Origin: Minisyncoccia bacterium
GTDB lineage: Bacteria; Patescibacteriota; Minisyncoccia; Phycocordibacterales; UBA1006
DNA: 64,000 nucleotides
NCBI GenBank assembly: GCA_044229075.1
Contig: JBGATS010000002.1
Coordinates: forward strand, 40,058 to 104,057
Direction of reading: 5' to 3'
The position numbers and the translations under genes were made by a program. This document shows, piece by piece, positions 4,401 through 36,169 of the stretch. Numbering within the stretch: the first letter of the stretch is position 1; every line of letters begins with the position of its first letter. Under the pieces are notes generated by a model, which had not been told where the DNA came from, searched no databases, and saw only the letters and a list, made by a program, of their open reading frames with translations.

Positions 4401-4405
4401 ACTAT

Positions 4406-7400
4406 ATGAAACCCTACGATCACAAAAAAATTGAAAAGAAATGGCAGAAGACTTGGGTAGATACTAATGTGTATAAAACACTCTCTGCAAAACAGGCTCG
4501 TGCTAAAAAACTCAAACCATATTATGTACTGGATATGTTTCCGTATCCGTCTGGTGCAGGTTTACATGTTGGTCATCCACGCGGATATATTGCATCCGAT
4601 GTTTTTGCGCGCATGAAACGCATGAGCGGTTTTAACGTATTGCATCCAATGGGATTTGATAGTTTTGGGCTTCCTGCAGAACAATATGCAATCAAGACTG
4701 GAAAAAATCCTGGACCATTTACTAATGAACTAGTAAAACGATACAAGGAACAATTGTCGATCCTTGGCTTTTCATATGACTGGAATCGTCAGGTTGCAAC
4801 ACATGATCCAGAATATTATCGATGGACACAGTGGATTTTCTTACAGATTTATAACAGTTGGTATGATAAGGAAAAGCAAAAAGCTCGACCGATTACAGAT
4901 CTTGAAAAAGAATTTGCGAAAAATGGAAATGAAAAAGTGAACGCAGTTTGTGATCAGAATACTCCGACTTTTTCAAAAACAGATTGGAAGAACTTTTCAG
5001 ATTTGGAAAAGCAAAACATGTTAATGAAATACCGATTGGCGTACGAGGGATATGCCGAGGTCAATTGGTGTGCAGAAATGGGAACCGTGCTCGCCAATGA
5101 TGAGGTGATCGAGGTAGATGGCAAAATGGTTTCCGAGCGAGGTGAATTTCCCGTTGAGAAAAAATCAATGCGGCAGTGGTTTATGCGCATTACTGCATAC
5201 GCTGATCGGTTAATTGATGGACTCGACGAAATCGATTGGTCAAACAGTATCAAGGAAATTCAACGGAATTGGATTGGAAAAAGTGAGGGAAGTGAGATTG
5301 AGTTCGGAATTGTCTCAGATAAAAAGACTAGGATCTTCGGTGAAAAAATTACGGGTTCCATTGAAAGAAGTATTGTAAAAGTTATATTAAGAAACAAAGA
5401 CGGAAAAATTCTCGTTCTCGATTCAAAAGGTTTCGGATTAGATCTTCCTGGAGGTGCGATTGAAAGCAATGAATCATTAGAAAAAACAGCAGTTCGGGAA
5501 CTTCAAGAAGAAACGGAATATACAAATTTTAGATTTGTAAAAAACATGAGTTCTGACTTTATTAACTACTATCACCTCAATAGACAACAGTATTTTCACG
5601 GAAAAATTCATGTACTTTTATATGATTTAATTAACGATGAAAAATCTATAAAAAATGTTCAGTCAGGAGAAAATGAAACCAAAGATAAATGGATTAACCC
5701 ACAAGAGTTATATGATATTTTTCCAAAAGATTCAGCTTATAAAACTGCTTTAAAGAAATCAATTTTTGATTATATAAGTATACAGAAAAATCAAATAACA
5801 GTATTCACAACGCGTGCAGACACATTATTTGGTGTGACCTATGTTGTGTTGGCGCCAGAGCATGATTTGGTTCAGCAATTAAAATCACACATTACAAACT
5901 GGGATGAAGTTGAACAATATATCGCATCAGTAAAATCAAAATCAGATGAAGATCGCACTGCAGCAAAAGAAAAAACAGGAATACAATTAGAGGGAATTTT
6001 TGCAGTAAATCCAGTAAGCGATGAGCAAGTTCCAGTATGGATTGCGGATTATATATTAGCTGGATATGGAACAGGAGCAGTGATGGCAGTTCCTGCGCAT
6101 GATGAACGAGACTTTGAGTTTGCACAGAAATATGATCTACCGGTTAAGCATGTTGTTTCCCGTGTTCTTGATTATAAGGATCATAAAGAAGGTGTTCCAC
6201 ATTTAGTACGAAAAACAGTTGATCCTATTATTCGTGATAAGGAAGGGAATTTTTATTTAATACGTGAAAGTGAAGAAGATGTACACTTCGCAGGAGGTGG
6301 GGTTGAGGAAGGAGAAAGTGATATAGAAACTGCTCGGCGTGAAATAATTGAAGAAACAGGATTTACGGATTTTATTATCGGCAACCCAATTAATCTTTAT
6401 ATTTCTGCAACAGGTTATAGAGCAGCAAAAAATAGAAATCAGACTGGGTATGGAACTGCATATGAAGTTGTATTAAATAGTACTCAGCAGATTCCATCAG
6501 AAATTGATCAAGGAATCCATACGGTAGTAAAGGTTTCAAAGGATGATGTCTTAAAATCAATCACATGGGAGCATCATCGTTGGATTTTTGAAGCGTATTT
6601 AAACGGACCAAAAGCTTTTACAGACGAAGGTTTACTTATCGACTCTGGTCAGTTTAATAATATGAATTCTACTGAAGCTCGCAAAGCAATTACGGAATTT
6701 GTTGGTGGGAAATTGGTTACTAAATACAAAATGCGCGATGCAATCTTTGCACGACAGCGATATTGGGGTGAACCGATTCCGTTAATCCATGAAAAAGACG
6801 GGCTAATTGAAGCAATTCCAGAGAAGCAACTTCCACTAACTCTTCCACCTGTCAAAAGTTATGCACCAAGTGGAAATGGTGAAGGGCCGCTTGCGACTGT
6901 AAAATCATGGGTGACTGCAGGCTACGAAACCAACACCATGCCGGGCTGGGCTGGATCATCATGGTATTTCTTGCGCTATACGGACCCAACGAACAAGAAA
7001 AAATTTGCAGATGAATCAGAACTTGATTATTGGTTTGGGAAAAATGGTGGGGTGAATATGTATGTCGGTGGTGCAGAGCATGCAACAGGACACCTCCTCT
7101 ATTCTCGTTTTTGGCACAAGGTCTTGAAAGATTTGGGATATGTAAAAACAGAGGAACCGTTCCAGGCATTGCGTAATCAGGGTATGATTGGTGGTGCCGA
7201 TGGACGCAAAATGTCAAAACGGTGGGGAAATGTGATCAACCCAGATGATGTGGTGCGTGATATGGGTGCTGATACATTGCGTGTGTATGAATCATTCATG
7301 GGACCATTTGATGCCCACCTACCATGGAGTATTGATGGTATTGCAGGCGCGCGACGATTTATTGAACGTATTTGGCGATTCCAAACTAAAGTTTCAAATA

Positions 7401-8029: not shown

Positions 8030-10399
8030 ATGTTTAAAAAAATAACTCGTGGAATTTCTTCAGTAATTGGGCGTGGACTTACCTTCATAGCCCCAAAAAA
8101 AGAATCGTCATTTTTTTTTATTAGTCTTTTAGTACTCGTTGGAATCGTACTTTTAGGATTTATTCCTATGGCTGGAGTCAACGGACTTTTTGCAAAGAAT
8201 CTCCTCCTTCCATTTTTTGCAGGAGCAATGCTTATTCTTGTCGCAGGACAAGCCTTGAAACAGGGTGCTTTTACTCTCTTGGAACAAAAAAGCTCACTCG
8301 TGATTGGTGGATCTTTACTTATAATGTTGATTGTATCTTTTTTTGCAGTTGCTCCAAAAACAGCACTTTTTGGATCTTTTGGTGAAACACCTTCATTTCT
8401 TTTATTGTTATCACTTGTTATTATCTTTTATGTTGCAGCTATCTCTTTTAAAAAATTCTCCCATACATTAGGACTGTTATTAGTGCTTGCAATGGTATAC
8501 AGTATTACCTTTCTCCATATAATTATTCGGATTATTTTTGGCCCCCAGATACTCTCTTTTGGATTCATGAACACTATTACAACAACGTTAATAGGGTCAT
8601 GGACAGATTTTGCAATCCTTTCAATGATTATTATGGTATTAGGGGTTATCTGTTTTGAGGTTGGTAAATTTACTCGTCCAGCAAAAATAATAACAGGATT
8701 AGTCACCATACTTGGATTTTTAGGGATGGTGTTAGTTAATATGAAATGGATTTGGATTTTTGGTGGAGCTTCATTACTTGTGTTTTCAGTATATACATTT
8801 TCTTTAGCATATTGGGATCCAGAAAAAGAATCCTATGAATCAAGTAGAACTGTTCCATGGTTTACTATTCTATTATTTATTGCAACATTAGTCGGACTTA
8901 TTTTCGGGAGTTTCGTTACTCAATTTATTGGTAATTATCGTTCAATTAGTTATCAAGAAGTGTATCCAAGTATTCCAGCAACTTTTCAAGCAACAGTAAA
9001 AGGTTTTACAGAACGACCACTTACAGGAACCGGGTTGGGTGATTTTGATCATTTATGGAATCTTGTAAAACCTGTGCAACTTTCAGGTACTCATCCAGGG
9101 TCTCTCGAGTTTGCAAGTGGATATAGTTTTGTCACAACAGTTATTGCAACTACAGGAGTTTTAGGAATATTTGCTATTATAGCACTGTTTGGAATCTTCT
9201 GTATTCGTATTGTACGTGTTATCAAAAAAGAATTTTCGAGTATCCATTCTCGGTTTATGATTACACTTACTATTGCAGGCGCAGTAATGACATCATTAGT
9301 ATTATTAATTGATTACCCAGGAACAAGCATTATGCTCATTTGGACTGTTTTTATGGGGTCATTGTGGGGAATCCATCATGATAGAGAAGAGAAAAAACTT
9401 TCATTTGTTCATGATCCTCGAACAAGTTTCTTTGGGATGATTGTTATTGTTCTCTTGGTAGCTGTAGGTGCTATGTCCATGTATATCAGTATTCGCAAAA
9501 CAGTATCAATAGTTTCCTATAGTACATCGTTACAATTACTTGCACAGAATAACATTGATGCAGGAGTTGCAAAATTAGTACAAGCAAATCAACTATGGTC
9601 GAGTGATTTTTATCATCGAGCATTAGCAAATCAAGTTCTTGCACAGGTTCGTGTGTTGGGGAATCAGCCAGGTATTTCAAAGGAAGTACTCGGGAAAGAA
9701 GTAGAACGTATTTTATCACTAGGTGTTTCATATGCAAACGCTGCAACTACTGCTGATCCGAATAATTACCGCAACTGGACAATGTTGGGTAATGTATATC
9801 AGTTCTTTGGGAACCTCCAGGTTGAAGGTGCTCTTGAAAAAGCGCGATCAGCATATACCAAGTCATCACAGCTTTCACCAAACGACAGAACATTGGATAT
9901 TTTATTTGCAAATAATTACCTTTCTTCTGGTGATAAAACAACTGCAACGTCATTGATCAATGATTCAATTAAAAAATATCCAACCCAAGATGCGTATACA
10001 TGGCTCTATCAACAAGATATTTCTGAAAAATCTTTTGATAAGGCTGCGCAAAATTTAGTTAATGCAATTAGTCTGGATATTACTAACTATGGACTCATTA
10101 ACGAGTTTGGTATATTAATGTTTGCCCAAGGAAACTATCAAGAGGCAGCAACTGCCTTCGAGCAATCATTGTCCGTATATCGACTGCAACCAGTAGTGTT
10201 TGCGTATCTCGGTGTATCATACGAATCTCTTTCTAAAACAGAACAGGCAGAACAAGTTTTTGCATTCCTGAGAAAAGAACTTCCTGACAATGCTGATACA
10301 TTTATCGATCAAGCGAGAAAGCAAAAAGGATCACTCTCGACACAAGTAATACCTCAAATACAAACACCAACTGAATCTATTATTCCCGTGTCTCAATAA
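8030..10399 (+). CDS. Polytopic membrane protein, O-antigen ligase/polymerase-like, with C-terminal TPR-like repeats
   Basis: More than 10 predicted TM helices are followed by a soluble C-terminal region with TPR-like A/Y/L periodicity (NYRNWTMLGNVYQFFGNLQVEGALEKARSAYTKSSQL...). TTTATACT lies 8 nt upstream of the ATG. Confidence 0.4.
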   Translation: MFKKITRGISSVIGRGLTFIAPKKESSFFFISLLVLVGIVLLGFIPMAGVNGLFAKNLLLPFFAGAMLILVAGQALKQGAFTLLEQKSSLVIGGSLLIMLIVSFFAVAPKTALFGSFGETPSFLLLLSLVIIFYVAAISFKKFSHTLGLLLVLAMVYSITFLHIIIRIIFGPQILSFGFMNTITTTLIGSWTDFAILSMIIMVLGVICFEVGKFTRPAKIITGLVTILGFLGMVLVNMKWIWIFGGASLLVFSVYTFSLAYWDPEKESYESSRTVPWFTILLFIATLVGLIFGSFVTQFIGNYRSISYQEVYPSIPATFQATVKGFTERPLTGTGLGDFDHLWNLVKPVQLSGTHPGSLEFASGYSFVTTVIATTGVLGIFAIIALFGIFCIRIVRVIKKEFSSIHSRFMITLTIAGAVMTSLVLLIDYPGTSIMLIWTVFMGSLWGIHHDREEKKLSFVHDPRTSFFGMIVIVLLVAVGAMSMYISIRKTVSIVSYSTSLQLLAQNNIDAGVAKLVQANQLWSSDFYHRALANQVLAQVRVLGNQPGISKEVLGKEVERILSLGVSYANAATTADPNNYRNWTMLGNVYQFFGNLQVEGALEKARSAYTKSSQLSPNDRTLDILFANNYLSSGDKTTATSLINDSIKKYPTQDAYTWLYQQDISEKSFDKAAQNLVNAISLDITNYGLINEFGILMFAQGNYQEAATAFEQSLSVYRLQPVVFAYLGVSYESLSKTEQAEQVFAFLRKELPDNADTFIDQARKQKGSLSTQVIPQIQTPTESIIPVSQ

Positions 10400-25334: not shown

Positions 25335-25406
25335 GGCCCTATCGTCTATCGGTTAGGACAGCAGGTTTTCATTCTGCAAAGCGGGGTTCGACTCCCCGTA
25401 GGGTCA
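25335..25406 (+). tRNA. tRNA-Glu (anticodon TTC); integration target of the downstream island
   Basis: Acceptor GGCCCTA/TAGGGTC, Glu-type D-arm TC-GTCTATCGGTTAGGAC, anticodon stem GCAGG/TCTGC with loop TTTTCAT, T-arm CGGGG-TTCGACT-CCCCG. Confidence 0.8.
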
Positions 25407-25460
25407 CAATAGAGAGAGCTAGTTCGAGCGCTCGAGAAGGGTCGAAACTAGCAAACAAAA

Positions 25461-25485
25461 GCAAGTCAGAAATGACTTGCTTTTG
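25461..25485 (+). terminator. Terminator downstream of tRNA-Glu
   Basis: gcaagtca-gaaa-tgacttgc followed by TTTT. Confidence 0.75.
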
Positions 25486-25517
25486 TTGTACTAAACTACA
25501 ACGATTTGTGATACAAT
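25485..25517 (+). promoter_or_regulatory. Candidate C-box-like palindrome (GTTGTA-N6-TACAAC) plus extended -10 (TGTGATACAAT) upstream of the controller gene
   Basis: Inverted repeat gttgta ctaaac tacaac at 25485-25502 sits at the -35 position relative to TGnTACAAT at 25508-25517. ATG at 25524. Confidence 0.4.
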
Positions 25518-25523
25518 ATTTTT

Positions 25524-25730
25524 ATGAAAGATGATGCTAAGAAATTGGGAGAAAATCTCAAAATGATCAGAACAAAGAAGGATATTACACAAACACAACT
25601 TGCGGATATCCTTGGAGTCGACAAGTCTTTTGTGAGTAATATTGAGAACGGAAAAACCAACCCTACTCTTTCAACTATTACTAATCTAGCTCAAGCGTTG
25701 AATGTGTCGACTAATGAATTATTAAAATAA
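25524..25730 (+). CDS. XRE-family HTH regulator, probable R-M controller (C) protein
   Basis: 68 aa with the Cro/C1-type HTH LKMIRTKKDITQTQLADILGVDKSFVSNIENGKTNP...LAQALNVSTNELL. It lies directly upstream of the restriction and methyltransferase genes. Confidence 0.65.
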   Translation: MKDDAKKLGENLKMIRTKKDITQTQLADILGVDKSFVSNIENGKTNPTLSTITNLAQALNVSTNELLK

Positions 25731-25734
25731 ATTT

Positions 25735-26715
25735 ATGGCAAGTACAAATTCTAAACAAATGACAACAGGAAAATCTTTTGAGTATGCTCTATTGATTTCC
25801 TTTGAAGAAAAATTGAAAGATAAAACAAATCTTGAGGTCGTAAAAAACTCTGCTTTTGATGTTGCAAAAAGTTGTTTTGATAGTGTTTCTAATCTTGAAA
25901 GAAGTGAGTATCTTCTGTCTGCAAGTTTTGCGGTTAACTTTTTAATGGATATAGAGCCAAGACTTTCAAATGATATTGGAAAAGACGATATTCTTCAACT
26001 TGAAATTTTATCAGATAACCATGGTAAAGCTGGTGATGTTCGTGATGTGCTTGCTATCAGATTACTTCAAAAATGGGAAATTGGTGTTTCTGCAAAGAAT
26101 AATCATATGGCAGTAAAACATTCTCGACTATCGTCGAGTATTGATTTTGGTGACAAGTGGTTAGGGTCCAAAGCTTCTAGTGAGTATTTTAATGAAATAA
26201 CTCCGATATTCTCTAGTCTTGAACAAATAAGAAAAGAAAGTGGAGCAAAAAAGAAGTGGAGTGAATTGGGTGATTATCACTCTACAATTTATGTTCCTAT
26301 TCTTAAAGCTTTTATAAAAGAACTAAAAAATCTGTACAAAAAAGATCCTGCAAGGGTTGCATCTAATCTGGTTGCTTACCTGGTTGGAAAAAAGGATTTT
26401 TATAAAGTAATCAAAGGGAAAAATTCTGTTGAAATTCATGCGTATAATTTAAACGGAACTTTAAATCTCCCATTTAAGGATGTTCAGCCTAAGTATAAAA
26501 CCCCAAAGGTCCCACTTCCTACTGAAATAGTTGATATAGATTTCAAGAATGGTAGTGACACAACAGCTATCGTAACAATGAATAATGATTGGACTTTGTC
26601 ATTCCGAATTCACAATGCAAGTTCAAGAGTTGAATCTTCTTTAAAGTTCGATATCAATCTTTTAAAATCACCAAATAAATTATTTAAAAACACGTTAACG
26701 ATAAGTAAAGATTAA
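25735..26715 (+). CDS. Putative type II restriction endonuclease of the C-R-M module
   Basis: 326-aa ORF between the C protein and the C5-methyltransferase, with 4-nt gaps. It has a possible PD-(D/E)xK-like segment GDVRDV...WEIGVSAK. The call rests mainly on position. Confidence 0.45.
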   Translation: MASTNSKQMTTGKSFEYALLISFEEKLKDKTNLEVVKNSAFDVAKSCFDSVSNLERSEYLLSASFAVNFLMDIEPRLSNDIGKDDILQLEILSDNHGKAGDVRDVLAIRLLQKWEIGVSAKNNHMAVKHSRLSSSIDFGDKWLGSKASSEYFNEITPIFSSLEQIRKESGAKKKWSELGDYHSTIYVPILKAFIKELKNLYKKDPARVASNLVAYLVGKKDFYKVIKGKNSVEIHAYNLNGTLNLPFKDVQPKYKTPKVPLPTEIVDIDFKNGSDTTAIVTMNNDWTLSFRIHNASSRVESSLKFDINLLKSPNKLFKNTLTISKD

Positions 26716-26719
26716 AATT

Positions 26720-27697
26720 ATGAAATTAGCTTCATTATTCACAGGTGCAGGAGGACTTGATTTAGGCTTTGAAAAAGCTGGTTTTCATGTTGTTTGGGCA
26801 AATGAGTATGATTCAACAATTTGGGATACATTTGAATATAACTTTCCAAAAACAAAACTCGACCGTCGTAGTATTGTAGATGTATCCCACTCAGATATTC
26901 CTAAAGTTGATGGAATTATCGGAGGTCCACCATGTCAGAGCTGGAGTGAGGCTGGGGCTGGTCGTGGAATAAACGATAAACGAGGTCAGTTATTTTTTGA
27001 TTATGTTCGATTACTAAAAGAAAGACAACCAAAGTTTTTCCTAGCTGAGAACGTTGCTGGAATTCTTCATCCGAAACATGCAGAGGCTTTTAATAATATT
27101 ATTAAATCATTTGAAGATGCTGGCTATGTAATATCCTGGAAATTATTAAACGCAAATGATTATGACGTTCCTGAGGACAGACTTCGTGTAATTATAGTTG
27201 GTTATCATAAAAAACTTAAAAAGAAATTTGAATTTCCTGAACCGCAAAAGTATAAACCCGTTCTTAAGGATGCAATTTTTGATTTACGATTAGCTAAACC
27301 TGCAAAAGATAAAAACAAAACAAATGGAGATGCCCTAAAAATACCAAACCATGAGTACATGATTGGTGGGTTTTCTACTATGTATATGTCACGAAATCGC
27401 GTTAGATCTTGGGATGAACCATCTTTTACTATCCAAGCTGGTGGTCGTCATGCACCACTACATCCACAAGCCCCAAAAATGAAATTCATATCTCAAAATG
27501 AAAGAGTTTTTGTTCCTGGTAAAGAAGATTTATATCGCCGTTTATCGGTACGAGAATGTGCAAGAATACAAACATTTCCCGATGATTTTATTTTTAAATA
27601 TCGTGATGTAGCTGATGGATATAAAATGATAGGTAATGCTGTACCAGTTAATTTTGCATACCATATAGCTAAGAAAATAATGAAAGATTTAAAATAA
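26720..27697 (+). CDS. DNA (cytosine-5)-methyltransferase, M.HaeIII-like
   Basis: Motif I LFTGAGGLDLGF, motif IV GGPPCQSWS, motif VI FLAENV and motif X IGNAVPVNFA are present. Long stretches (KNKTNG...NHEY.IG.FST..MSRNRVR.W.EP.FT.QA.GR...LHPQAP...YRRL.VRECAR.Q.FPDDFIF.Y...DGYKMIGNAVPVN) match my recollection of M.HaeIII (GGCC). Confidence 0.85.
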   Translation: MKLASLFTGAGGLDLGFEKAGFHVVWANEYDSTIWDTFEYNFPKTKLDRRSIVDVSHSDIPKVDGIIGGPPCQSWSEAGAGRGINDKRGQLFFDYVRLLKERQPKFFLAENVAGILHPKHAEAFNNIIKSFEDAGYVISWKLLNANDYDVPEDRLRVIIVGYHKKLKKKFEFPEPQKYKPVLKDAIFDLRLAKPAKDKNKTNGDALKIPNHEYMIGGFSTMYMSRNRVRSWDEPSFTIQAGGRHAPLHPQAPKMKFISQNERVFVPGKEDLYRRLSVRECARIQTFPDDFIFKYRDVADGYKMIGNAVPVNFAYHIAKKIMKDLK

Positions 27698-27708
27698 AGA
27701 ATAAAGAG

Positions 27709-28974
27709 CTAAATTTTAATTATTTTGTTTTTCAAAATCAACTCACTACTGATACATTCCAAGATAGATCTTTGTTCTAGCGGAGATCCTTCTTTTAGTA
27801 CAAATTTTGTATAATCCCTGAGATCAATTGGTTCTATTTTTTCTGTCTTTTTCTTACCCAAGAACATTGCTTGTAGTTTCTTGAACTTCTGTATCTCAAC
27901 ATCAAGTTTTGCTGTCAACTTAACCTTATTGATATTTAAGGTATCAACCATATCGAGTAGTGACTCAATTAGTTCAGTCTCGTTCAATGCAGGGTTCTTA
28001 CAATTCCGATCTTTGGCTTTTGTACATCGGTAATATACATGTCGATTTACTCCACCATTCAGTAGCTTCTTGAATTTTTCATCGGCAGTAATACCTGATC
28101 CACACACTCCACATTTCATAATTCTCGTAAAGGCAAATTCCTTGCCTTGTGATTTTATAGTCTGCGATTTGATAGAATTTCGTGTCTCATCAAATAATTC
28201 CTTGGAGATGATCGGCTTATGTTTTCCCTCATACCAGATACCAGCACCTTGAGGAAACTCAAAGCGACCATAATAGAAAGTATTATTTATAATTTTGAAC
28301 ACATTTCCTAGACTTAAGTGAAAACCTCTGTGAGTTTTGAAATTGAGATCATATCGTAACCATGCGTGTACTTTTGATACACTCCATTTTTCGTAGCTGA
28401 TCTTCTCAAATATCTGGCGTATGGTATCGGCTCGTTCTGGATCTATTTCCACCTCACACTTGGCTAATCGTTGGTTAGGCTTTCTATATCCTGTTGGTGG
28501 TTGTACTGGCCATAGACCCATTTCGCATCTCGCCCTCATTCCACGCTTTACATTGATACTTTTATTATCATTTTCTAGTTTTGCTTGAGAACACAGAATC
28601 ATCAACAAGAACTTATCACTTGGAGAATTCGTAAATGTCTGACCAAATGTTTTGATCTGAATTAGTTTTTTCTGATCCATTCTATCTACGAGTTTTCCAA
28701 GATCTCCTGCATTACGAGAAAGTCTATCGGGTGCCCATGTGATTATTCCGTTGAATATATCAGTATCGATATCTTTTACGATTTCCTCAAATACTGGTCT
28801 TTGTCCTGACTCTTTTGCACTATGTGATTCCTTCCGAATCTCAACTATGGTGAGATTTTCACGTTCTGCAATCTGTCTCATTTCCTTGATCTGAGAATCA
28901 ATAGAAAGAGCTTGTTTTTCTTCAGCTTCTGTTGATTTACGAGCATATAAGCAATATTTTAATGGTGCTTCCAT
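27709..28974 (-). CDS. Large serine recombinase (resolvase/invertase N-domain plus recombinase domain plus Zn-ribbon)
   Basis: N-terminus YARKSTEAEEKQALSIDSQIKEMRQIAERENL...WAPDRLSRNAGDLGKLVD holds the catalytic Ser region. A recombinase domain and a C-terminal CGVCGS...YYRCTK...C zinc ribbon follow. Confidence 0.85.
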   Translation of the reverse strand: MEAPLKYCLYARKSTEAEEKQALSIDSQIKEMRQIAERENLTIVEIRKESHSAKESGQRPVFEEIVKDIDTDIFNGIITWAPDRLSRNAGDLGKLVDRMDQKKLIQIKTFGQTFTNSPSDKFLLMILCSQAKLENDNKSINVKRGMRARCEMGLWPVQPPTGYRKPNQRLAKCEVEIDPERADTIRQIFEKISYEKWSVSKVHAWLRYDLNFKTHRGFHLSLGNVFKIINNTFYYGRFEFPQGAGIWYEGKHKPIISKELFDETRNSIKSQTIKSQGKEFAFTRIMKCGVCGSGITADEKFKKLLNGGVNRHVYYRCTKAKDRNCKNPALNETELIESLLDMVDTLNINKVKLTAKLDVEIQKFKKLQAMFLGKKKTEKIEPIDLRDYTKFVLKEGSPLEQRSILECISSELILKNKIIKI

Positions 28975-29009
28975 ATGTATATTAATGACAGACCAGTTGG
29001 TGGTGCATA

Positions 29010-29043
29010 GTCTATGCAGAACTATAAATACGTCGCATACTCG
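29010..29043 (+). repeat. 34-bp direct repeat copy 1 (GTCTATGCAGAACTATAAATACGTCGCATACTCG), promoter/operator-like, upstream of the MTase gene
   Basis: It matches 32 of 34 positions with the copy at 30151-30184. Both copies lie about 85-90 nt upstream of consecutive + strand genes. Confidence 0.7.
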
Positions 29044-29128
29044 AATTTAGTAAAATAGTTAGATATTTACATTTATTAAAATATATGTTAATATTTATTA
29101 AATTTTACTCATTTTAAATTTAATAACA

Positions 29129-30094
29129 ATGAAAAGTCAATTTATTAAAGATTACGGTACAACCGTAACACCAGAAATTTATATTAATGCCCTGCAAGGA
29201 CATCAGTACATCCCACAAGCAGATAAATGTATAGGTGATATTGTATCCAGAAAGCTAAACATTAGTCTTCCAGAAGATAAATTTTCTTTACTAGATGTAG
29301 GTTGTGGACCTAATAGATTAACTTCTCAATTTGCTGCTATTGTTGGCTCGGGAGTTGTTGGTATTGATATATCTGAGTCATTCATTAGGTTTTCAAATGA
29401 AAACTTGCCATGTTTAAAGCCTGGTAATATGCGTTCCAATCCTACCTTTTTTCAGATTGATTTTAGTAATACTAAAGAGTTAGGAATTCTTAAAGAGTCG
29501 CGACCTTTTGATGTTATTATTATGCATGGTGTTATGCATCATATTCATGGTAGTGATAGAATTTCGTTCATTCAAAATGCTTATGACTATCTTTACAGTA
29601 CAGGAACTCTCATTATTGGAGATGAATTTATAGCTGATTATGATTCAGATCAAACTCGTAAAGATAATATTGCAAAATTTTACTGCCATATTATTGATGA
29701 AGCTCGCAAAGGTGGATTCAATAAATTAGCTGAAGAAGAGGCAAAAAATCTTATTGACGATTACTTTTCAGGAACAGAATATGCCGGCTACGGAGGTAGT
29801 AAAGTGTTTGAATGTATTTATGAATTCTCTCAAAAGATTAATACTGAATTCTATACCAGAGGTATATTTGGTGAATTTACTAAACTCATTGATCTTATGG
29901 AAAAGAATATTATAAGATTAATAGAACATCTTGAGCCGAACACAACTTCCTTTAATCGAGGCGATTATAAAACTTCTATTAATAAGTTTGCGTCAGAAGT
30001 CAGCGAGTACGGATTTACACTTTCAGAAACCTATAGGATTGGTCCTGTGGATCAATTGGGTGGTATGGGGGTTTTGGTTTTCAAAAAGTATTAG
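29129..30094 (+). CDS. Class I SAM-dependent methyltransferase with extra C-terminal domain
   Basis: LLDVGCGPNRLT (motif I), VGIDIS, FDVIIMHGVMHHI and GTLIIGDEF are followed by an approx. 130-aa C-terminal extension of unknown function. Confidence 0.65.
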   Translation: MKSQFIKDYGTTVTPEIYINALQGHQYIPQADKCIGDIVSRKLNISLPEDKFSLLDVGCGPNRLTSQFAAIVGSGVVGIDISESFIRFSNENLPCLKPGNMRSNPTFFQIDFSNTKELGILKESRPFDVIIMHGVMHHIHGSDRISFIQNAYDYLYSTGTLIIGDEFIADYDSDQTRKDNIAKFYCHIIDEARKGGFNKLAEEEAKNLIDDYFSGTEYAGYGGSKVFECIYEFSQKINTEFYTRGIFGEFTKLIDLMEKNIIRLIEHLEPNTTSFNRGDYKTSINKFASEVSEYGFTLSETYRIGPVDQLGGMGVLVFKKY

Positions 30095-30105
30095 ATTACG
30101 CTTTT

Positions 30106-30140
30106 AACGGATTGTTCAATTGAACAATCCGTTTTTTATT
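30106..30140 (+). terminator. Terminator after the MTase gene
   Basis: Perfect hairpin aacggattgttcaat/tgaacaatccgtt followed by T6. Confidence 0.85.
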
Positions 30141-30150
30141 TTTAAATTTG

Positions 30151-30184
30151 GTCTATGCAGAACTAAAAATACGTCACATACTCG
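30151..30184 (+). repeat. 34-bp direct repeat copy 2 (GTCTATGCAGAACTAAAAATACGTCACATACTCG) upstream of the radical-SAM gene
   Basis: See copy 1. It contains the TAAAAAT/TATAAAT -10-like core. Confidence 0.7.
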
Positions 30185-30271
30185 TGAAGTCTTTTTAAAT
30201 ATAACACTTGATTTATTTATAAAGTATGATATAATAAAAACAAAATTTCGTAACTTGTAAAATAAATAAAA

Positions 30272-32200
30272 ATGAAAAATAAAATTCTAAATTTCGTCAA
30301 AATAACTGGAGTTTTGTTGCTTTTATTTGTAACATTTCTTTCACAGTTATCATTTACAGTATCCAAGTATATTGGGATACCTCCTAACCATGAGGCAGGG
30401 TCAGGAACATCTGCATGTGTAGAATATGAAATAGATGGAAAAATTTATCGAAACTATTCATCTGAAGCCATAAAGCTATATAATCTTGATTCTTGCAGAG
30501 TAGGAATACATTTGCCTGGATATTTTAATCCAAGTAATGGAGAAACAAGTCCAATGAGTACGCATTTCCCTAAAAAAGATATTCAATTTTGTTTCAAGTA
30601 TGTTGAATATATCTTACCTGTACAAGTAAGAGTTCCAACAAGAAAAAACCAAAAGGATTACTCTTTTAGGGTCATGGGAGTATCTGCTCCTCAATGGGTT
30701 TCAACTGGGGGTACTTCTATAAGTTACGCACTTGATAGTCGAACACCTTTTAGCTTGCAAAATGCCCTAAGGCTTGCCGTACAAGACGCACAAAGATCAC
30801 AAAGTGTTTGGGGTCTTTCTAATTGGTCTGACCCTGAAAATCTTCATGACTCAGTATTTCTCATGAATTATTTTGAAGAAGAAAAAGAAAACTTCGTTCA
30901 AAGAATTCGTGAAATACAACCACATGTACTATTTATCGGATCAATGACACTTTCATTTCCTGGTGCAGTTCAAATTGCTAAACTAGCAAAACAAGAACTA
31001 GGTAATGTGTTCGTTGTTCTTGGCGGTAAACATGCTATTGAAACCATCTATTGGAAAGATAATCAAGTAAATCACCATCCCGCTTCGCCAACATTATTAA
31101 TGCAAAATAAGTCTATACCAGAAGTATTTGACTTAGTGGTATCGGGTGACGGTGAAGATGTTGTAAAATCTATTGGAGAGATATTAGGTCAAGAAATTGT
31201 AAATCAAAAATGTATTTTACCTTTTTCTGAATATCAAAATAGTTTTGAAAAAACAAAAGGTAATTTTATACTTACTTGGTTTGAGGATGGGAAAATTAAA
31301 AGTTTTACTAAGCAAAAAAACCCACTTGAGCACGATCTACTTCCGTCACCAGTCTCTCTTTTTGGTGTAAATACATCTTTTCCTGTTTTTGGAAAAGAGT
31401 TTACAGCACATGTTTATAGTGACATGGGAAAAGGTTGCGTATTTAATTGTTTTTTCTGTTCCGAACGTTCTGCAATTAATGGTCCTATTGTGCAATCTGG
31501 TAGTCCGGCAAAAAGACTTTACACACAACTCAGAGATGCTTCTTTGCAAAATGATTCAATGAGTGCGTTTGTAGAGGATTCGATTTTACTTATGGGTTTA
31601 CCAAAACATTTAGATGAGTTTGTTTGTCTTCTTGAATCAAATCCTTTACCTATTGTATTTGGAGGTCAATTTACTATTGATAATTTACTTGATCCAAAGG
31701 TTCAGCCTTGTATTCAAAGATTATCTCAATTAGGATTAGTATATATTTATACTGGAATGGAAACTTCCAACGAAGAAATTGCCACAGAAATGAGTAAAAA
31801 CACCAAGAGGAAAGAAGGTTGGATTGAGCGAAACAAAAAAGCTGTCCAATTTGTAACAGATTTAGGCATTAAACACGGAGTAAGTATTCTTTGGGGATTA
31901 GGTGAGTCATCTCAAGATCGACAAAACCAACTTTCAATTATTGAAAGTTTCCAAAATAAATATAATAATCCTGTTTGTGTATCACCTAATTGGGCAACCC
32001 AACATCCTTTGTTTAATCAATCTCAGTTCATATACACTGATTGGGGTACTGATAAGGATAGTGATTACTTAAAATATTTCACGCAATTATTTGGAGAAGC
32101 TTCTGAAAGGTATTGTTTGAACAACATAAACCTTCCAGATACTAAAGAGTTAGAGTTTTTGATTTCAAAGTTTCGCCAATTAAATATTAAAAATATTTAA
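30272..32200 (+). CDS. Membrane-anchored B12-binding radical SAM enzyme (class B radical-SAM-like) with novel approx. 200-aa N-terminal domain
   Basis: N-terminal hydrophobic anchor ILNFVKITGVLLLLFVTFLS. A B12-binding-like segment HVLFIGSMTLSFPGAVQIAKLAKQELGNVFVVLGGKHA. The CVFNCFFC (CxxxCxxC) radical SAM cluster motif at about aa 390. Confidence 0.6.
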   Translation: MKNKILNFVKITGVLLLLFVTFLSQLSFTVSKYIGIPPNHEAGSGTSACVEYEIDGKIYRNYSSEAIKLYNLDSCRVGIHLPGYFNPSNGETSPMSTHFPKKDIQFCFKYVEYILPVQVRVPTRKNQKDYSFRVMGVSAPQWVSTGGTSISYALDSRTPFSLQNALRLAVQDAQRSQSVWGLSNWSDPENLHDSVFLMNYFEEEKENFVQRIREIQPHVLFIGSMTLSFPGAVQIAKLAKQELGNVFVVLGGKHAIETIYWKDNQVNHHPASPTLLMQNKSIPEVFDLVVSGDGEDVVKSIGEILGQEIVNQKCILPFSEYQNSFEKTKGNFILTWFEDGKIKSFTKQKNPLEHDLLPSPVSLFGVNTSFPVFGKEFTAHVYSDMGKGCVFNCFFCSERSAINGPIVQSGSPAKRLYTQLRDASLQNDSMSAFVEDSILLMGLPKHLDEFVCLLESNPLPIVFGGQFTIDNLLDPKVQPCIQRLSQLGLVYIYTGMETSNEEIATEMSKNTKRKEGWIERNKKAVQFVTDLGIKHGVSILWGLGESSQDRQNQLSIIESFQNKYNNPVCVSPNWATQHPLFNQSQFIYTDWGTDKDSDYLKYFTQLFGEASERYCLNNINLPDTKELEFLISKFRQLNIKNI

Positions 32201-32229
32201 TTGGTATTGTAAAGAGCAAGTGTCCTGTA

Positions 32230-33264
32230 TTAGGTCTTGCTCTTTTTTATTTCAATTAATTTTTGCACTAGTTTTTTAAAATCAGTAATCTTTGTTTTAC
32301 TTGTAAACGAAATACGAATTCCGGGATTTTTTGGTTCTGTAATGGAATACTTTTTATTATGAAAAACATGAATATTGTATTCTTTTAGGTTATTAATAAC
32401 TTTTTCGATATTTCTTTTCCACGGAATAGTTACTATATAATCTACCTGGTTTTGTGTTTTGTATACAGTAAGATCGTTTTCTTTGATCAATTTTTCAAGG
32501 TAATTTCTTTTTTGACGAAGAATTTTAGAATTAATTATTACTTTCTTTATATTCACTAAAGTTGAATATATTTCTCTTGAAAACTCTTTTGGATCAATAG
32601 ACCATTGATCCATGTTATATTTTTTCCTTAAAGATTTACTAATATAACAAAACCCAATATGAGGTTCTGCATTTATAAATTTAGAAGTAACCCCTAGATA
32701 AATATCTGAAATCTTTTTTGGGTTCACTGATAGTATACCAACTGACTGAGAACCATCAACTATTAGTATATTATGAGGGTTTATCTTTTTAATCTCTCTA
32801 TATAATTTTTCATTAACAAATCTTTCGCCTGTCATTCGTGATACATGCGAGATAATAATTATTGCGGGCTTTTTCCTGATTACTTTTTCTATATTCTCCA
32901 AGTTTACTTCTGGATTAAAAAGTGTGACATCCTTTTTAATAAAGGGAACCGATTTTTGTTTTACGTAATTTGGGTACGTTGTTTCGCGAACAGGAAGCTT
33001 ACCTGTTCCAAATAATGTTTTAAACCACTTAATCTCGTGATTACTTATAAATATATTATAGTCACTTTTTTCAAGTATTGGTTTTAGTGAAAAAATAAGA
33101 GATGTTGTTAGATTTTGAGAAAAAGACAAAGAATCGTTTTTACCTAAGTGTAAAAGCCTTTTTAGTAAAAAGCAAAAATCTTGAAAATTTTTAGTATAAT
33201 TTTTAATACTAGTGTTTTCTAACTGCTTAATCTTACGCCCGTCTGAATAATTTAAGTAAATCAT
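32230..33264 (-). CDS. Class V PLP-dependent aminotransferase / cysteine-desulfurase-like protein (divergent)
   Basis: Fold-type I class V pattern: IYLNYS..., ISNHEIKW (EH-like), AIIIISHVSRMTGERF, ILIVDGSQSVG and TSKF (candidate PLP lysine). It is very AT-rich and convergent with the radical SAM gene. Confidence 0.5.
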   Translation of the reverse strand: MIYLNYSDGRKIKQLENTSIKNYTKNFQDFCFLLKRLLHLGKNDSLSFSQNLTTSLIFSLKPILEKSDYNIFISNHEIKWFKTLFGTGKLPVRETTYPNYVKQKSVPFIKKDVTLFNPEVNLENIEKVIRKKPAIIIISHVSRMTGERFVNEKLYREIKKINPHNILIVDGSQSVGILSVNPKKISDIYLGVTSKFINAEPHIGFCYISKSLRKKYNMDQWSIDPKEFSREIYSTLVNIKKVIINSKILRQKRNYLEKLIKENDLTVYKTQNQVDYIVTIPWKRNIEKVINNLKEYNIHVFHNKKYSITEPKNPGIRISFTSKTKITDFKKLVQKLIEIKKSKT

Positions 33265-33420
33265 TATACAAATATTAACATATATTATCTCTATACAAAA
33301 CCATTAATCTATTTCATACTCGCATGACCTCTTAGCAAAACATATTTTTTGCGATATGATCATGGAATATTAACATAAAGTGTGTTAATATAAGATTATA
33401 ACTTAATAAAATTAAAATGA

Positions 33421-33615
33421 CCTAACCCCTTTGGTTTTCCAAAGGATATGGTTGCAAAACTCGCTACAAGATAAAAACCCCATCATCAGGGGCTATTACT
33501 TGTAGCGAGTCGTATCGGGAAACTGGTACGGGTAACTTCGGTTACCGATGCCTTGGTGGTGGGATTTTTGTTTACCACCAAAATATTATTAACCATAAAA
33601 ACTCGCTACAAAAAT
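33421..33615 (+). other. Highly structured non-coding region (possible cis-regulatory RNA) upstream of the gene at 33616
   Basis: Direct repeat AAAACTCGCTACAA at 33456 and 33597. The inverted copy CTTGTAGCGAG at 33499 can pair with either. Hairpins ggtaac-ttcg-gttacc and ttggtggtggg...ccaccaa lie between. This gives alternative-pairing geometry. Confidence 0.4.
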
Positions 33616-34128
33616 ATGGAAACAAAAACTCTTTCCCAAAAAGGAATGGGTTGGGCTAAAAAACATCCAATCCTTTCCGTCATTGGGGTCATTTTTATAA
33701 TAGGACTTATCGGCAGTATTGTTGATCCTTCTGAAAAGAAACCAGATGAGCCTAAATTACAAGAACAAGTTCAGCAGGTTGTGTTTGATGTTCCTTCGCT
33801 TATTGGGAAAAACATAGATGAAATTGAATTTATCTACGGCAAGGAAGAATCACAGGAACCGAATGAGTATCAAATTAATACCGTTACTGAATGGAGTAAG
33901 GAATTCAAAAGGGATGAATTTATTCTTCTTGTAACATATGACTACAAAACAAGAGTTGTTAAAGATTTCTTTGTTTCTGCAACTGACGAAATTTATGAGA
34001 GTAGAGATAAGGATCGAATGATGAGTATTACAAATACTAATAAATATGATTCAAAATATTCAGTATCATTTGTAAAAGCAATGACTGACTCAACTCGATT
34101 CACTGGAATACAGATTTCGCCAAAATAA
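33616..34128 (+). CDS. Membrane-anchored hypothetical protein
   Basis: METKTLSQKGMGWAKKHPILSVIGVIFIIGLIGSIV (TM) is followed by an approx. 130-aa soluble domain. The ORF-track start at 33553 overlaps the structured region, and the ATG at 33616 is preferred. Confidence 0.4.
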   Translation: METKTLSQKGMGWAKKHPILSVIGVIFIIGLIGSIVDPSEKKPDEPKLQEQVQQVVFDVPSLIGKNIDEIEFIYGKEESQEPNEYQINTVTEWSKEFKRDEFILLVTYDYKTRVVKDFFVSATDEIYESRDKDRMMSITNTNKYDSKYSVSFVKAMTDSTRFTGIQISPK

Positions 34129-34299
34129 AGTTATGGGTTTTCGTAGTCAAATTAAGGTTTGGATCAGAAAATTCTTTCATAAGAAAGATAATATATTCAT
34201 TATTAAAATGTGGATCAATATTCCCACCAAACCAAAACCACAGAAACCCTATATACCCAAAAAGCGATCGTTGAACGTATCGCTTTTTGATTATATGGA

Positions 34300-34884
34300 T
34301 TAATCATCATTATCTTCGTTTAAAAATTGAGCATTTATTTCATTTATCTTTTCTGACAAACTATTAAGCTGTTCGGTCACAATATTTTTTACTGCAGGAT
34401 CACTAAGATCGGTCATATCTAAAAATGGTGATTCTGGCTTCATTGGGTGGTATCGACCACTGTTATGCCGTAATGCAAATATGATTGCATTGAGGTCTCC
34501 TTCAAGGATTTTCTTCATGAGCATTGATTCTCCAATATCAAGAAAGTCTAATCTTCTTTCTTGTGGAGTATTAAAGAGGTTAATATCCAACATGCCATTT
34601 TTCGGCTTTTTCATAAAACGGTCATCGTTATGTGAAAGCCAGTATTTAATCATCCCTGAATCGCCTTGCTTGATCTTGTTGATAGTCTGACTAGTCGCCA
34701 AATCGTTCACATTGTTAATTCCTTGTGTCATACATTCTTCGTACTGTTTCTTGAAATCAGGATCTTCCTTAAGCCATCTAAAAATAGTTTGTCGGGAAAG
34801 GTTTAACTGTTTACAGACAGCACTAACAACAGGAGTATTCCTGAGTTCTTCGAGAAAAAGTTTTGATTTACGATGCTTTTTCAT
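34300..34884 (-). CDS. HTH protein, phage terminase small-subunit-like
   Basis: HTH VSAVCKQLNLSRQTIFRWLKEDPDF sits near the N-terminus and the C-terminus is acidic. It lies next to the ParB-methyltransferase gene, as in phage packaging/partition modules. The alternative start at 35001 would overlap the upstream gene by 134 nt. Confidence 0.4.
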   Translation of the reverse strand: MKKHRKSKLFLEELRNTPVVSAVCKQLNLSRQTIFRWLKEDPDFKKQYEECMTQGINNVNDLATSQTINKIKQGDSGMIKYWLSHNDDRFMKKPKNGMLDINLFNTPQERRLDFLDIGESMLMKKILEGDLNAIIFALRHNSGRYHPMKPESPFLDMTDLSDPAVKNIVTEQLNSLSEKINEINAQFLNEDNDD

Positions 34885-36169
34885 AGCTAATAATTTGTGC
34901 TTTGTTGCCAGCCAACTTTTCGTATCTACTGATGATGAGATCGCAGAATACTGGTTCCATTTCAATACCGTATACAACTCTTTGTAATTGTTCTGCTGCA
35001 ATTAACGTACTTCCTGATCCGAGAAAACTATCAAGGATAATATCGCCAGGGAGTGTGCACCTACGAATCGCTTTCTCATGTAATTCAACAGGTTTTGTCG
35101 TGGCGTGCTTATAATCTTTTCCGCTGACTCTTTTTGCAGTCCAGATATTCACTTCATCAATTGAATCATTACCCGTGGTAATTTCCTTGTTCATGATCTC
35201 GGTTAATCCTTGCTCTTTCTTTGAAAGATACGGATGACCTTTTGTTCCATAGATACATGGCTCATAACACTTATTGAACGCGACCAAGGGCGTTGGGTTG
35301 TGTCCATTTTTGACCCACAAACATACTCGCTTATTCTCAATACCTAATTCTCGATAGAGTACCTGAACTATCCAAATATGTTGTTCTGTATTCCAATAGA
35401 ATACATGTACATCTTTCTTTGAAACTGCCAAGGCGGCTGACATGCTTTGCTTGAGGAAACTTTTGTATTCCTCATCCGTTTTGTTGTCAGTAACAGTTCC
35501 GCCGTAGTTTTGTTTACCACCCAAACCTTTATCATAGTCTAGGTTGATATTGTAAATCGGATCAGAGTAGATCATGGAAGCCTGCTTGTCTTCAAACAAT
35601 CTTTTTAACACTTCAGGATCAGTAGAATCACCGCAGATTATCTTGTGTTTGCCAAGGATGACAATGTCGCCAGTTTTAACTCGGGGTTCTTTAATATTCT
35701 TAAGTTCTTTTGCAACATCAAAGTTCTCAACTTTGGTAGTGATGTTGTTATCCCAGATATTTGCAAGATCAGATTTAGGGAATCCGACTTCTGTGAGTAG
35801 TTCAATATCGAATTCTTTGAGTAGTTCAAAATCCCAATCACCACCAAGCGCATTACTAGAAATCAAATAGCCCTTAGCTTCTTCATCAGTGAGTTTTCTA
35901 TTAGGTACACGAACATCAATAATTTCATTGTCTCGACCGAGTAGCTTGAGAACTTTGATTCGTTGATGACCTGCAAGAATACTGCCATCCACATCAATTG
36001 CAGGTATTTCAACGAGGTTATATTTCTCGAAACTTCGTTTAAGAGCATCTAACTGGCTCGGGCTAATCTTCCGAGGGTTTTTAATGTGAGGCACAAGTTC
36101 AGAAACTGTTCGTGTTTCTGTGTGCCAAGTAAGTTTTGTAGACATAATGAAAACGCAAACCAATATCAA
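34868..36169 (-). CDS. ParB-like nuclease domain fused to N6/N4 DNA methyltransferase (phage-type)
   Basis: ParB/Srx N-domain VSELVPHIKNPRKISPSQLDALKRSFEKYNLVEIPAIDVDGSILAGHQRIKVLKLLG. DPIY (DPPY-like motif IV) SDPIYNINLD. A C-terminal ILDSFLGSGSTLIAAEQLQRVVYGIE (motif I; beta-class order). Confidence 0.8.
   Translation of the reverse strand: MILVCVFIMSTKLTWHTETRTVSELVPHIKNPRKISPSQLDALKRSFEKYNLVEIPAIDVDGSILAGHQRIKVLKLLGRDNEIIDVRVPNRKLTDEEAKGYLISSNALGGDWDFELLKEFDIELLTEVGFPKSDLANIWDNNITTKVENFDVAKELKNIKEPRVKTGDIVILGKHKIICGDSTDPEVLKRLFEDKQASMIYSDPIYNINLDYDKGLGGKQNYGGTVTDNKTDEEYKSFLKQSMSAALAVSKKDVHVFYWNTEQHIWIVQVLYRELGIENKRVCLWVKNGHNPTPLVAFNKCYEPCIYGTKGHPYLSKKEQGLTEIMNKEITTGNDSIDEVNIWTAKRVSGKDYKHATTKPVELHEKAIRRCTLPGDIILDSFLGSGSTLIAAEQLQRVVYGIEMEPVFCDLIISRYEKLAGNKAQIISYEKAS

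Follow-up and report, generated by a model that had tools for sequence, protein, structure and literature searches.

Two putative cassettes at the attachment site of a large serine recombinase in a Minisyncoccia genome

We analysed 64,000 nt of a Minisyncoccia bacterium genome (contig JBGATS010000002.1; this whole stretch is called the window, and coordinates refer to it unless another locus is named), in which genes for an S-adenosylmethionine (SAM) methyltransferase (MT), a radical SAM enzyme (rSAM) and a pyridoxal phosphate (PLP) enzyme lie beside a large serine recombinase (LSR) gene and among copies of a 34-nt repeat. Sequence comparison leads us to conclude, with a probability of about 0.85, that the segment 29010-33322 represents two independent cassettes inserted at the attachment (att) site of the LSR by conservative site-specific recombination. 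Cassette 1 (~29044-30150) would consist of the MT gene together with a promoter and a terminator of its own, and would have been acquired from a chromosomal locus of the housekeeping type. It would be functionally unrelated to cassette 2 (~30185-33288), a two-gene unit of rSAM and PLP enzyme that would move as a block among Patescibacteria genomes, and the LSR would belong to a phage-like element linked to a tRNA-Glu gene. When the chemistry proposed below is included, we favour the explanation as a whole with less assurance. The original prediction, made from the sequence of the window, had read the three enzymes as one modification cassette in a mobile island; the three open reading frames (ORFs) and the repeat are all where it had placed them, and the mobile setting is retained here in the form of an LSR-linked element with cassettes at its putative att site.

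Results

Attachment-type sites beside the recombinase gene

The LSR gene (27709..28974, minus strand) was identified by matches to Resolvase, Recombinase and Zn_ribbon_recom. The two copies of the repeat that had been noted, R1 (29010..29043) and R2 (30151..30184), are identical at 32 of 34 positions, and 100 shuffles gave 0 matches. A third, degenerate copy, R3 (33289..33322; all three are given on the plus strand), agrees with R1 at 24 of 34 positions, and the best score in 20 shuffles of the window was 23. R2 lies between the two cassettes and its flanks share no relationship with those of R1. Promoter-like hexamers with an extended −10 element are found 22-23 nt downstream of R1 and R2, outside the 34-mers.

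A metagenome scan for the 34-mer returned two contigs, L041 and L042 (loci are designated by L numbers and proteins by P numbers). In both, the 34-mer lies ~37 nt upstream of a divergent LSR gene whose product is 54% identical to that of the window, and the site is identical to R1 at 33 of 34 positions. The two contigs are 100% identical up to the end of the 34-mer, except for a short variable patch within the recombinase gene; past that end the similarity drops to random and the cargo differs, a 562-aa DNA methylase following the 34-mer in L041 and a zinc-ribbon ORF in L042.

The LSR has 34 relatives in IMG/VR contigs, with identity up to 94%. The contig with the 94% identical LSR, L077, contains one site only, GTCTATGCAGAACTAGAAATCTATTTCATACTCG, a hybrid that joins the left half of R1/R2 to the right half of R3. 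In turn, R3 matches the single site of this empty element over its right half, and the flank past R3 matches there too. Directly after the site, L077 carries the LOOT RNA, an ORF, a terminase-small-like (TerS-like) gene and an N6/N4 DNA methylase gene, which is the order of the window minus MT, rSAM and PLP enzyme. In blastn, window 29043-27728 and 33571-33290 land on overlapping L077 coordinates, and the homology to L077 stops exactly at 29043. Because both flanks overlap in this way, the window holds a 4,246-bp insertion at the site compared with L077.

A simple half-site rule describes the nine sites at hand (R1, R2, R3 and those of L041, L042, L078, L077, L113 and L112). The left half towards the LSR is of a type that we call P, and the right half is of type P' before LOOT and of type X' before cargo. 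Thus R1 and R2 both combine a P left half with an X' right half, and R3 combines an X left half with a P' right half. The P' half with LOOT next to it is seen at R3, L077 and L113, and the X' half with cargo next to it at R1, R2, L041, L042 and L078; in L112 the right half is merely X'-like and the rule is less clean. The 34-mer stands beside the recombinase gene and is conserved with it in L041, L042, L077, L078 and L113, and is more diverged in L112. It is absent upstream of rSAM orthologues, including those of L038 (69% identical) and L111 (96.7%).

The exchange of half-sites between L077 and the window is as expected for conservative site-specific recombination with a central crossover, and taken together these comparisons indicate that the 34-mers are att-type recombination sites of the adjacent LSR. 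The proposal of a duplicated promoter/operator found no support, as the 34-mer travels with the LSR, is missing upstream of rSAM orthologues and forms hybrid half-sites. On our reading, the empty junction is predicted to be the left half of R1 joined to the right half of R3, and the junction of an excised circle would read ...ACATATATTAT-CTCTATACAAAACCAT|AAATACGTCACATACTCG-TGAAGTC.... In viral contigs, neither the exact 34-mer nor the junction pattern predicted for a cassette circle had any match, and a less strict pattern for the left half yielded L077 and, apart from it, only coding matches without relation to the site.

The methyltransferase of cassette 1

The first cassette encodes a 321-aa MT (29129..30094, plus strand), recognised by Pfam. 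A promoter-like site precedes it (29066..29094, plus strand; TTTACA-17-TAATAT with TG upstream, a consensus match only) and an intrinsic terminator closes it (30106..30143, plus strand; a perfect 14-nt inverted repeat, with 12 pairs counted and a 4-nt loop, then a T-run). The MT thus sits in its own repeat-bounded segment with its own terminator, the strong structure at 30106-30133 splitting it from the rSAM gene. Class I SAM-MT models cover residues ~50-167 (Methyltransf_12, E=6.9e-13), and the C-terminal ~150 residues have no Pfam match, yet are conserved across the MT family, in agreement with the class I fold and extra C-terminal domain first proposed. This is a family of ~320-aa Patescibacteria proteins, with 79 homologues. 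In PADLOC v2 the MT matched only the generic MT region of mad2.

No rSAM gene was present at the three MT orthologue loci that we inspected (46-80% identical), and the two closest orthologues (74-80%) sit among translation genes, either flanked by Obg and GatB or next to RF-1, L31 and L25. Conversely, no relative of the MT was found in rSAM loci. Homology to chromosomal MT loci extends only over 29063-30087 (L035), inside R1-R2, and the promoter-like site of the MT falls within this homologous block. As an observation on the family, the MT orthologue of L037 (Falkowbacteria) lies within a 64-nt direct repeat that is 77% identical between its copies (6792-6855 and 8292-8355 of that contig), near AbiEii, GmrSD_N and PDDEXK genes, and the MT may therefore travel in cassette form at other places as well.

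The radical SAM enzyme of cassette 2

The rSAM gene (30272..32200, plus strand; 642 aa) is preceded by the best promoter-like site of the region (30208..30235, plus strand; TTGATT-16-TATAAT with TG upstream, 10/12). The two expected Pfam domains score under their cutoffs, B12-binding just so (residues 201-255, 30.8 bits vs a gathering cutoff of 32.1) and Radical_SAM more clearly (residues 386-550, 24.5 bits vs 29.5). The core, residues 133-632, matches the NCBIfam model TIGR04434 end to end (E=7e-125), at 417.4 bits vs a curated cutoff of 550. Four tested homologues, one of them from Pseudomonas, likewise score 390-440 bits, so the group is a sister of TIGR04434 and not its equivalog. The best NCBIfam match outside the family was BchE (3e-9).

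Residues C389/C393/C396 and G251-G252-x-H254 are invariant in 26 aligned homologues; the CxxxCxxC motif, on whose presence in orthologues the first assignment had depended, is therefore well conserved, and the same alignment has no second conserved cysteine cluster. Family matches, motifs and the structural model together suggest that the rSAM is of the class B (cobalamin) type and related to TIGR04434. The model (AlphaFold, pLDDT 88) has TokK, MgmA and CysS, which are cobalamin-dependent radical SAM C-methylases, as its nearest solved folds (E 3.6e-10 to 6e-10, TM ~0.4). A search of PDB sequences with the family profile gave no real relative, TokK appearing at E=0.07.

The N-terminus proved to be of mixed novelty. 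The membrane anchor described earlier was confirmed as a predicted hydrophobic helix at residues 2-24, and the model places a beta-rich segment (residues 26-108) and a disordered linker after this transmembrane helix. The novel domain of ~170 residues was borne out in part, residues 1-~130 being an extension found only in a Patescibacteria/Saccharibacteria clade, whereas residues 133 onward are conserved family core. The rSAM also has a conserved N-terminal segment of ~65 residues of its own.

The family is rare. We collected 216 homologues; among 1.84 billion representatives, only 79 clusters, formed at 50% identity, matched at E <= 1e-30. When a single genome of each species was scanned, 29 loci came to light, spread across many phyla, and 2.9 million IMG/VR contigs contained no relative. 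The literature searched had no mention of TIGR04434 or Pput_1520 and nothing relevant that combined radical SAM, B12-binding and defence. The rSAM had no PADLOC match and missed the cutoff of TIGR04434, itself a "hypothetical equivalog", so that the earlier remark that the genes fit no named system still applies.

The PLP enzyme of cassette 2

The convergent gene (32230..33264, minus strand; 344 aa) encodes a class-V-fold PLP enzyme by family match, alignment and model. The assignment to class V was upheld by the Aminotran_5 match, at 31.9 bits vs a cutoff of 21.5, and by a model of pLDDT 95 for which Foldseek returned SufS and NifS at TM 0.72-0.75. The family has only 22 members, and many of its matches sit on contigs equal in size to those bearing rSAM matches. 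H140, D170, Q173, K195 and R317 are invariant in the family.

When aligned to SufS, K195 corresponds to K226 of SufS and the catalytic C364 corresponds to Y306, a variable aromatic residue. No cysteine is invariant among 21 sequences of the family. With no conserved cysteine at that position, no persulfide is expected to form there. The enzyme thus has the PLP lysine and the class V fold of a cysteine desulfurase and lacks the persulfide-accepting catalytic cysteine. The variable aromatic residue disfavours persulfide chemistry and sulfur insertion, and the latter, which the original prediction had offered as one option, was rejected because a second conserved cysteine cluster is missing from the rSAM, as is a cysteine in the C364 position from the PLP enzyme.

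The rSAM and PLP genes form a mobile pair

Clustering of neighbouring ORFs showed that a PLP gene of the window type adjoins the rSAM gene in the window and in L001, L003, L007, L008, L009, L014, L020 and L023, and the adjacency was seen in L038 and L111 as well. The two are fused in L017. Three rSAM homologues of ~990 aa (P0096, P0108 and P0110) carry a C-terminal Aminotran_5 domain homologous to the PLP protein of the window. These arrangements indicate that the rSAM and PLP genes are a real functional unit, and, because the two are fused in some lineages, the enzymes very probably act on one substrate. The trio that had been proposed as a unit is thereby reduced to this pair, adjacent or fused in many loci, and the MT, with its inspected orthologues away from rSAM genes, drops out.

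The clearest sign of movement is in L111, where the rSAM-PLP block is 96.65% identical to the window over 3,075 bp (30212-33286) and has unrelated flanks, lying between khpA and an unrelated gene. The homology starts <=27 nt after R2 and ends at the left edge of R3, and L111 has the corresponding promoter-like sequence for the rSAM gene. At other loci the pair is bracketed by repeats of different kinds: direct repeats with a 42-nt core, 22 of them exact, in L003; a perfect 44-mer, corresponding to the duplicated 3' half of a tRNA, in L007; and perfect 23-mers abutting a tRNA in L009, where the bracketed segment also holds a class IV aminotransferase. All three exceed the longest repeat (16 nt) found in 200 shuffles. 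No LSR gene was seen near the pair in these repeat-bracketed loci.

L003 shares other genes with the window at 70-72% identity (window 2065-2574 and 4397-5193 vs L003 14623-15159 and 17125-17921), and its pair lies at a different locus, which gives independent support for mobility of the pair. The genes that flank the pair in L003 do not occur in the window.

Partners of the rSAM elsewhere and proposed chemistry

To describe the wider context of the rSAM, neighbouring genes were clustered and annotated at 30 rSAM loci. The recurrent partners are PLP enzymes, a B3_4-domain protein, a small MT, a Liv-type ATP-binding cassette (ABC) system, TrmB, AraC and EamA; no nucleic-acid enzyme recurs beside the rSAM at the 30 loci. 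In other branches of the family the PLP partner is a cystathionine-beta-lyase-like enzyme, and P0230 is a fusion of such an enzyme with the rSAM. A class IV aminotransferase also counts among the partners. LivJ/HM-type ABC systems with TrmB regulators were found in L014, L023 and L026. Transporters and metabolic regulators accompany the rSAM in Proteobacteria and Planctomycetia.

One branch of the family (type B loci) is without a PLP enzyme. At L011, L013, L016, L018, L019, L024, L027, L031 and L032 its rSAM is always followed by a B3_4-domain protein and a SAM-MT of ~230 aa; the Pseudomonas rSAM of this branch is preceded by genes for an AraC regulator and an EamA exporter, and in P0235 the small MT is fused to the rSAM. 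The stand-alone B3_4 domain has the fold of the PheRS-beta editing domain. The MT of the window was considered as an equivalent of this partner MT and rejected, since a profile comparison aligned only a 61-column SAM motif.

With amino-acid PLP enzymes, Liv-type transporters, TrmB/AraC regulators and EamA as partners, small-molecule chemistry is favoured over nucleic-acid modification, and the suggestion of nucleic-acid hypermodification loses its ground. We tentatively infer that the pair modifies an amino-acid-like small molecule by a radical reaction, probably a methyl transfer, to which PLP chemistry is coupled, and we give this proposal slightly less than even odds. The rSAM, with one predicted [4Fe-4S] cluster and a putative cobalamin-type Rossmann domain, would probably act on an unactivated carbon, transferring a methyl group by radical chemistry or catalysing a related reaction. 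The PLP enzyme, which appears to keep the lysine of the Schiff base, the contacts made by Asp and Gln and the arginine for the alpha-carboxylate, would probably transaminate or beta-eliminate the same substrate. In the clade of the window the N-terminal helix would hold the rSAM at the membrane. As physiological roles, one may think of the salvage or synthesis of a modified amino acid, of an antimetabolite, or of defence.

Discussion

Alternative explanations

Several of our observations weigh against the explanation given above. A second att site was not found within 10 kb in L078. The left half of R2 is P-type, whereas simple sequential insertion predicts an X-type half, and the dyad symmetry of the 34-mer, judged by eye, is weak. 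The cassette copy of L111 lacks both att halves and so moved or was fixed by another route, and the direct repeats of L001 were not significant against 200 shuffles. The PLP gene starts just 24 nt from R3, so that its promoter must lie in or past R3. Related elements have defence genes in the cassette slot, and L001 lies in a defence island. Finally, lysines lie on the N-terminal side of the rSAM helix (window 30272-30670, residues 1-132), and by the positive-inside rule this would make it a signal anchor with the catalytic domain outside, a poor fit for a cytoplasmic Fe-S/SAM enzyme.

The explanation that this analysis set out from, in which MT, rSAM and PLP enzyme form one co-regulated cassette for hypermodification of DNA or RNA bases and the 34-mer is their shared operator or promoter, has some features on its side: all three classes of enzyme occur in intact form, both start codons have the 34-mer 85-87 nt upstream of them, and the neighbours act on DNA (restriction-modification [R-M], recombinase, DNA methylase). 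However, the inspected MT orthologues lie away from any rSAM gene, the two closest among housekeeping genes, and the small MT that does partner the rSAM elsewhere shares with the window MT only the SAM motif mentioned above. The 34-mer is absent upstream of the 69% identical rSAM orthologue and occurs beside LSR genes with unrelated cargo, with hybrid half-sites in L077; the 30 rSAM loci show no recurrent nucleic-acid enzyme, and the DNA-related neighbours are accounted for by the backbone of the mobile element. We therefore regard shared hypermodification as very improbable. A role of the pair as an anti-phage or anti-competitor module that makes or destroys a small molecule, retained for its place in a defence hot spot of the phage-like element, deserves more weight and is still unlikely. 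Prokaryotic viperins are radical SAM enzymes that make antiviral nucleotides, and by analogy the setting is suggestive: the LSR-adjacent slot is occupied by type III R-M in L041 and in L078, and in L086 by an 899-aa P-loop NTPase, and the slot between tRNA and LSR holds R-M in the window and L113. The pair of L001 is near Pycsar-type genes (cyclase, PycTM) and a ResIII/RE_endonuc gene, the rSAM of L005 comes after an AIPR gene, the pair of L007 comes after helix-turn-helix (HTH) and PIN genes, and the rSAM family is rare, patchy and mobile. On the other hand, PADLOC v2 gave 0 matches for the rSAM and for the PLP enzyme only DndA at 16.7 bits (8.7e-4), the viral contigs of IMG/VR hold no rSAM relative, and the pair lies amid housekeeping genes in L003 and L111. 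The transporters and metabolic regulators of the Proteobacteria and Planctomycetia loci point elsewhere, and the hot-spot position is an association only.

For the chemistry itself, the alternative is a non-methylating radical system, for example an aminomutase-like 1,2-shift or a C-C rearrangement. Class-B radical SAM enzymes are not all methylases, as OxsB and BchE illustrate, and BchE is the closest NCBIfam match outside the family; radical chemistry with PLP is a hallmark of lysine and ornithine aminomutases, and the rSAM is coupled, and partly fused, to PLP enzymes of two subfamilies. Against this, every one of the closest solved folds is a C-methylase, the PLP partner is not a PLP-binding module of the radical enzyme but a full fold-type I enzyme that has an active site of its own, and the partner in type B loci is a SAM-MT, with no PLP enzyme. 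Such a system seems to us quite unlikely, and methyl transfer is the form of the proposal that we prefer.

Relation to known systems

The rSAM resembles TokK, CysS and MgmA in its putative N-terminal Rossmann domain of the cobalamin type, followed by a radical SAM barrel with one CxxxCxxC cluster, at a sequence identity of just 13-16%. The rSAM differs from them in its own N-terminal segment, to which the clade of the window adds the transmembrane helix and the beta-rich extension, and in its dedicated PLP partner. TIGR04434 (rSAM_Pput_1520), an uncharacterised B12-binding/radical SAM family, is matched end to end, but at 417 vs 550 bits. SufS, NifS and IscS, including DndA and SspA of DNA phosphorothioation, share with the PLP enzyme the class V, fold-type I architecture, the lysine that binds PLP, the contacts through Asp and Gln and the conserved carboxylate-binding arginine; the PLP enzyme differs from them in having no cysteine at the C364 position and in being ~60 residues shorter.

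As to the arrangement of the cassettes, we compared it with three systems from general knowledge. Like SCCmec with CcrAB, the window has an LSR and cargo bounded by short direct site repeats in a tandem array, and some segments are without a recombinase of their own; it differs in that the recombinase lies outside the array beside the first site, the backbone is phage-like with a LOOT RNA, and the host belongs to the Patescibacteria. Like integrons, it has a recombinase gene divergent from a primary site that is followed by differing cassettes, and its cargo-bearing sites have one half-site (X') in common. Unlike an integron, which is defined by a tyrosine IntI and attC hairpins, it has a serine recombinase with Resolvase, Recombinase and Zn_ribbon matches, near-identical 34-nt repeats without attC hairpins, cassettes with their own promoters, and only two of them. 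The defence hot spots of P2/P4-type prophages and satellites likewise show cargo that varies at fixed positions beside an integrase, much of it R-M or defence-like; here the recombinase type and the host are different and insertion occurs at the putative recombination site itself.

A broader view may be drawn from these likenesses, namely that phage-like elements of Patescibacteria carry an integron-like platform for cassette capture built on an LSR, of which LOOT is a part, with the pair performing an undescribed chemistry. A single site, with the recombinase gene on one side and the gene of LOOT RNA on the other, would admit unrelated cassettes (type III R-M, P-loop NTPase, MT, rSAM-PLP), all cargo-bearing junctions having X', and LOOT RNA would belong to a recombination or regulation module. 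The chemistry could be a cobalamin/radical SAM alkylation of a PLP-activated amino acid, as one possibility, and its use defence or the building or salvaging of branched amino acids in an auxotrophic episymbiont. This view is speculative and, taken as a whole, more probably wrong than right by a good distance.

The rSAM-PLP pair is rare, mobile and without a characterised relative, and it occurs in bacteria of minimal metabolism, making it a compact target in the search for new radical chemistry on amino-acid-like molecules. Comparison of sites in their empty, occupied and hybrid states delimits, from sequence alone, the 34-nt site of an LSR family; LSRs attract interest as tools for genome engineering. 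The case is also a warning for genome scans, as side-by-side island genes that share a repeat can be independent insertions and not an operon.

The host element and its other features

The backbone of the element runs in the order tRNA-Glu, cargo, LSR, att site, LOOT RNA, ORF, TerS-like protein and DNA methylase. The names borne by relatives of the encoded proteins point to a Patescibacteria (Paceibacterota-like) host. The tRNA-Glu gene (25335..25407, plus strand), found by ARAGORN and Rfam, marks one edge of the element family, and a homologous tRNA adjoins the 3' end of the LSR gene in L078 and L079 (77-85% identity). No direct repeat of the 3' end of the tRNA-Glu was found at the island ends. 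The TerS-like HTH protein (34300-35001) and the N6/N4 DNA methylase (34868-36169), both on the minus strand and identified by Pfam, occur in the same order in L077. The backbone of the window (33616-36169; L077 28-2066) has this TerS-like protein and DNA methylase and no large terminase, which is present in the relatives L089, L094 and L113; a prophage in decay, or an element resembling a satellite, may be what the window holds. L089 and L094 had been considered as carriers of occupied slots and were set aside because the packaging genes themselves stand between LOOT and LSR. In L078, a reverse-transcriptase-like ORF (3901-5016), of the group II intron type by eye, lies beyond the type III R-M cargo.

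LOOT RNA (RF03000; 33419..33546, plus strand) scored 88.3 bits vs a gathering score of 46.4 and was the only hit when 28900-34300 was scanned with Rfam for riboswitches and leaders. It was present in 10 of 25 distinct LSR loci scanned, in addition to the window, and lies directly beside the LSR site in L077 (2076-2195), L079 (1847-1969), L083 (9699-9820), L085 (2426-2543) and L113 (8714-8830), 150-230 nt from the LSR gene and divergent from it, with the att site between. It is absent from the rSAM loci L001, L003, L007, L009, L014 and L024, and LOOT thus goes with the recombinase and not with the rSAM. The LSR neighbourhood may be the first genomic context for this RNA. A terminator-like hairpin at 33553-33615 probably terminates it; the listed TTG start of a 191-aa ORF overlaps this hairpin, and the ATG at 33616 is more likely to be the true start.

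A second variable slot was noticed between the tRNA gene and the 3' end of the LSR gene (window 25408-27708). It contains a type I/IIG-like R-M system in L113 (10307-16629), an AAA_21 ATPase in L112 (10253-12028) and two unannotated ORFs of 595 and 377 aa in L077 (3647-6587), and is empty in L078 (11270-11457). In the window the slot is filled by a HaeIII-type R-M system and a small HTH ORF, the former comprising a restriction enzyme (25735-26715, plus strand; RE_HaeIII, 2e-98) and a C5 DNA methylase (26720-27697, plus strand; DNA_methylase, 8e-99). The small ORF (25525-25731), just 5' of the HaeIII-like endonuclease gene, appears by eye to encode an Xre-type HTH and is probably the controller (C) protein of this R-M system.

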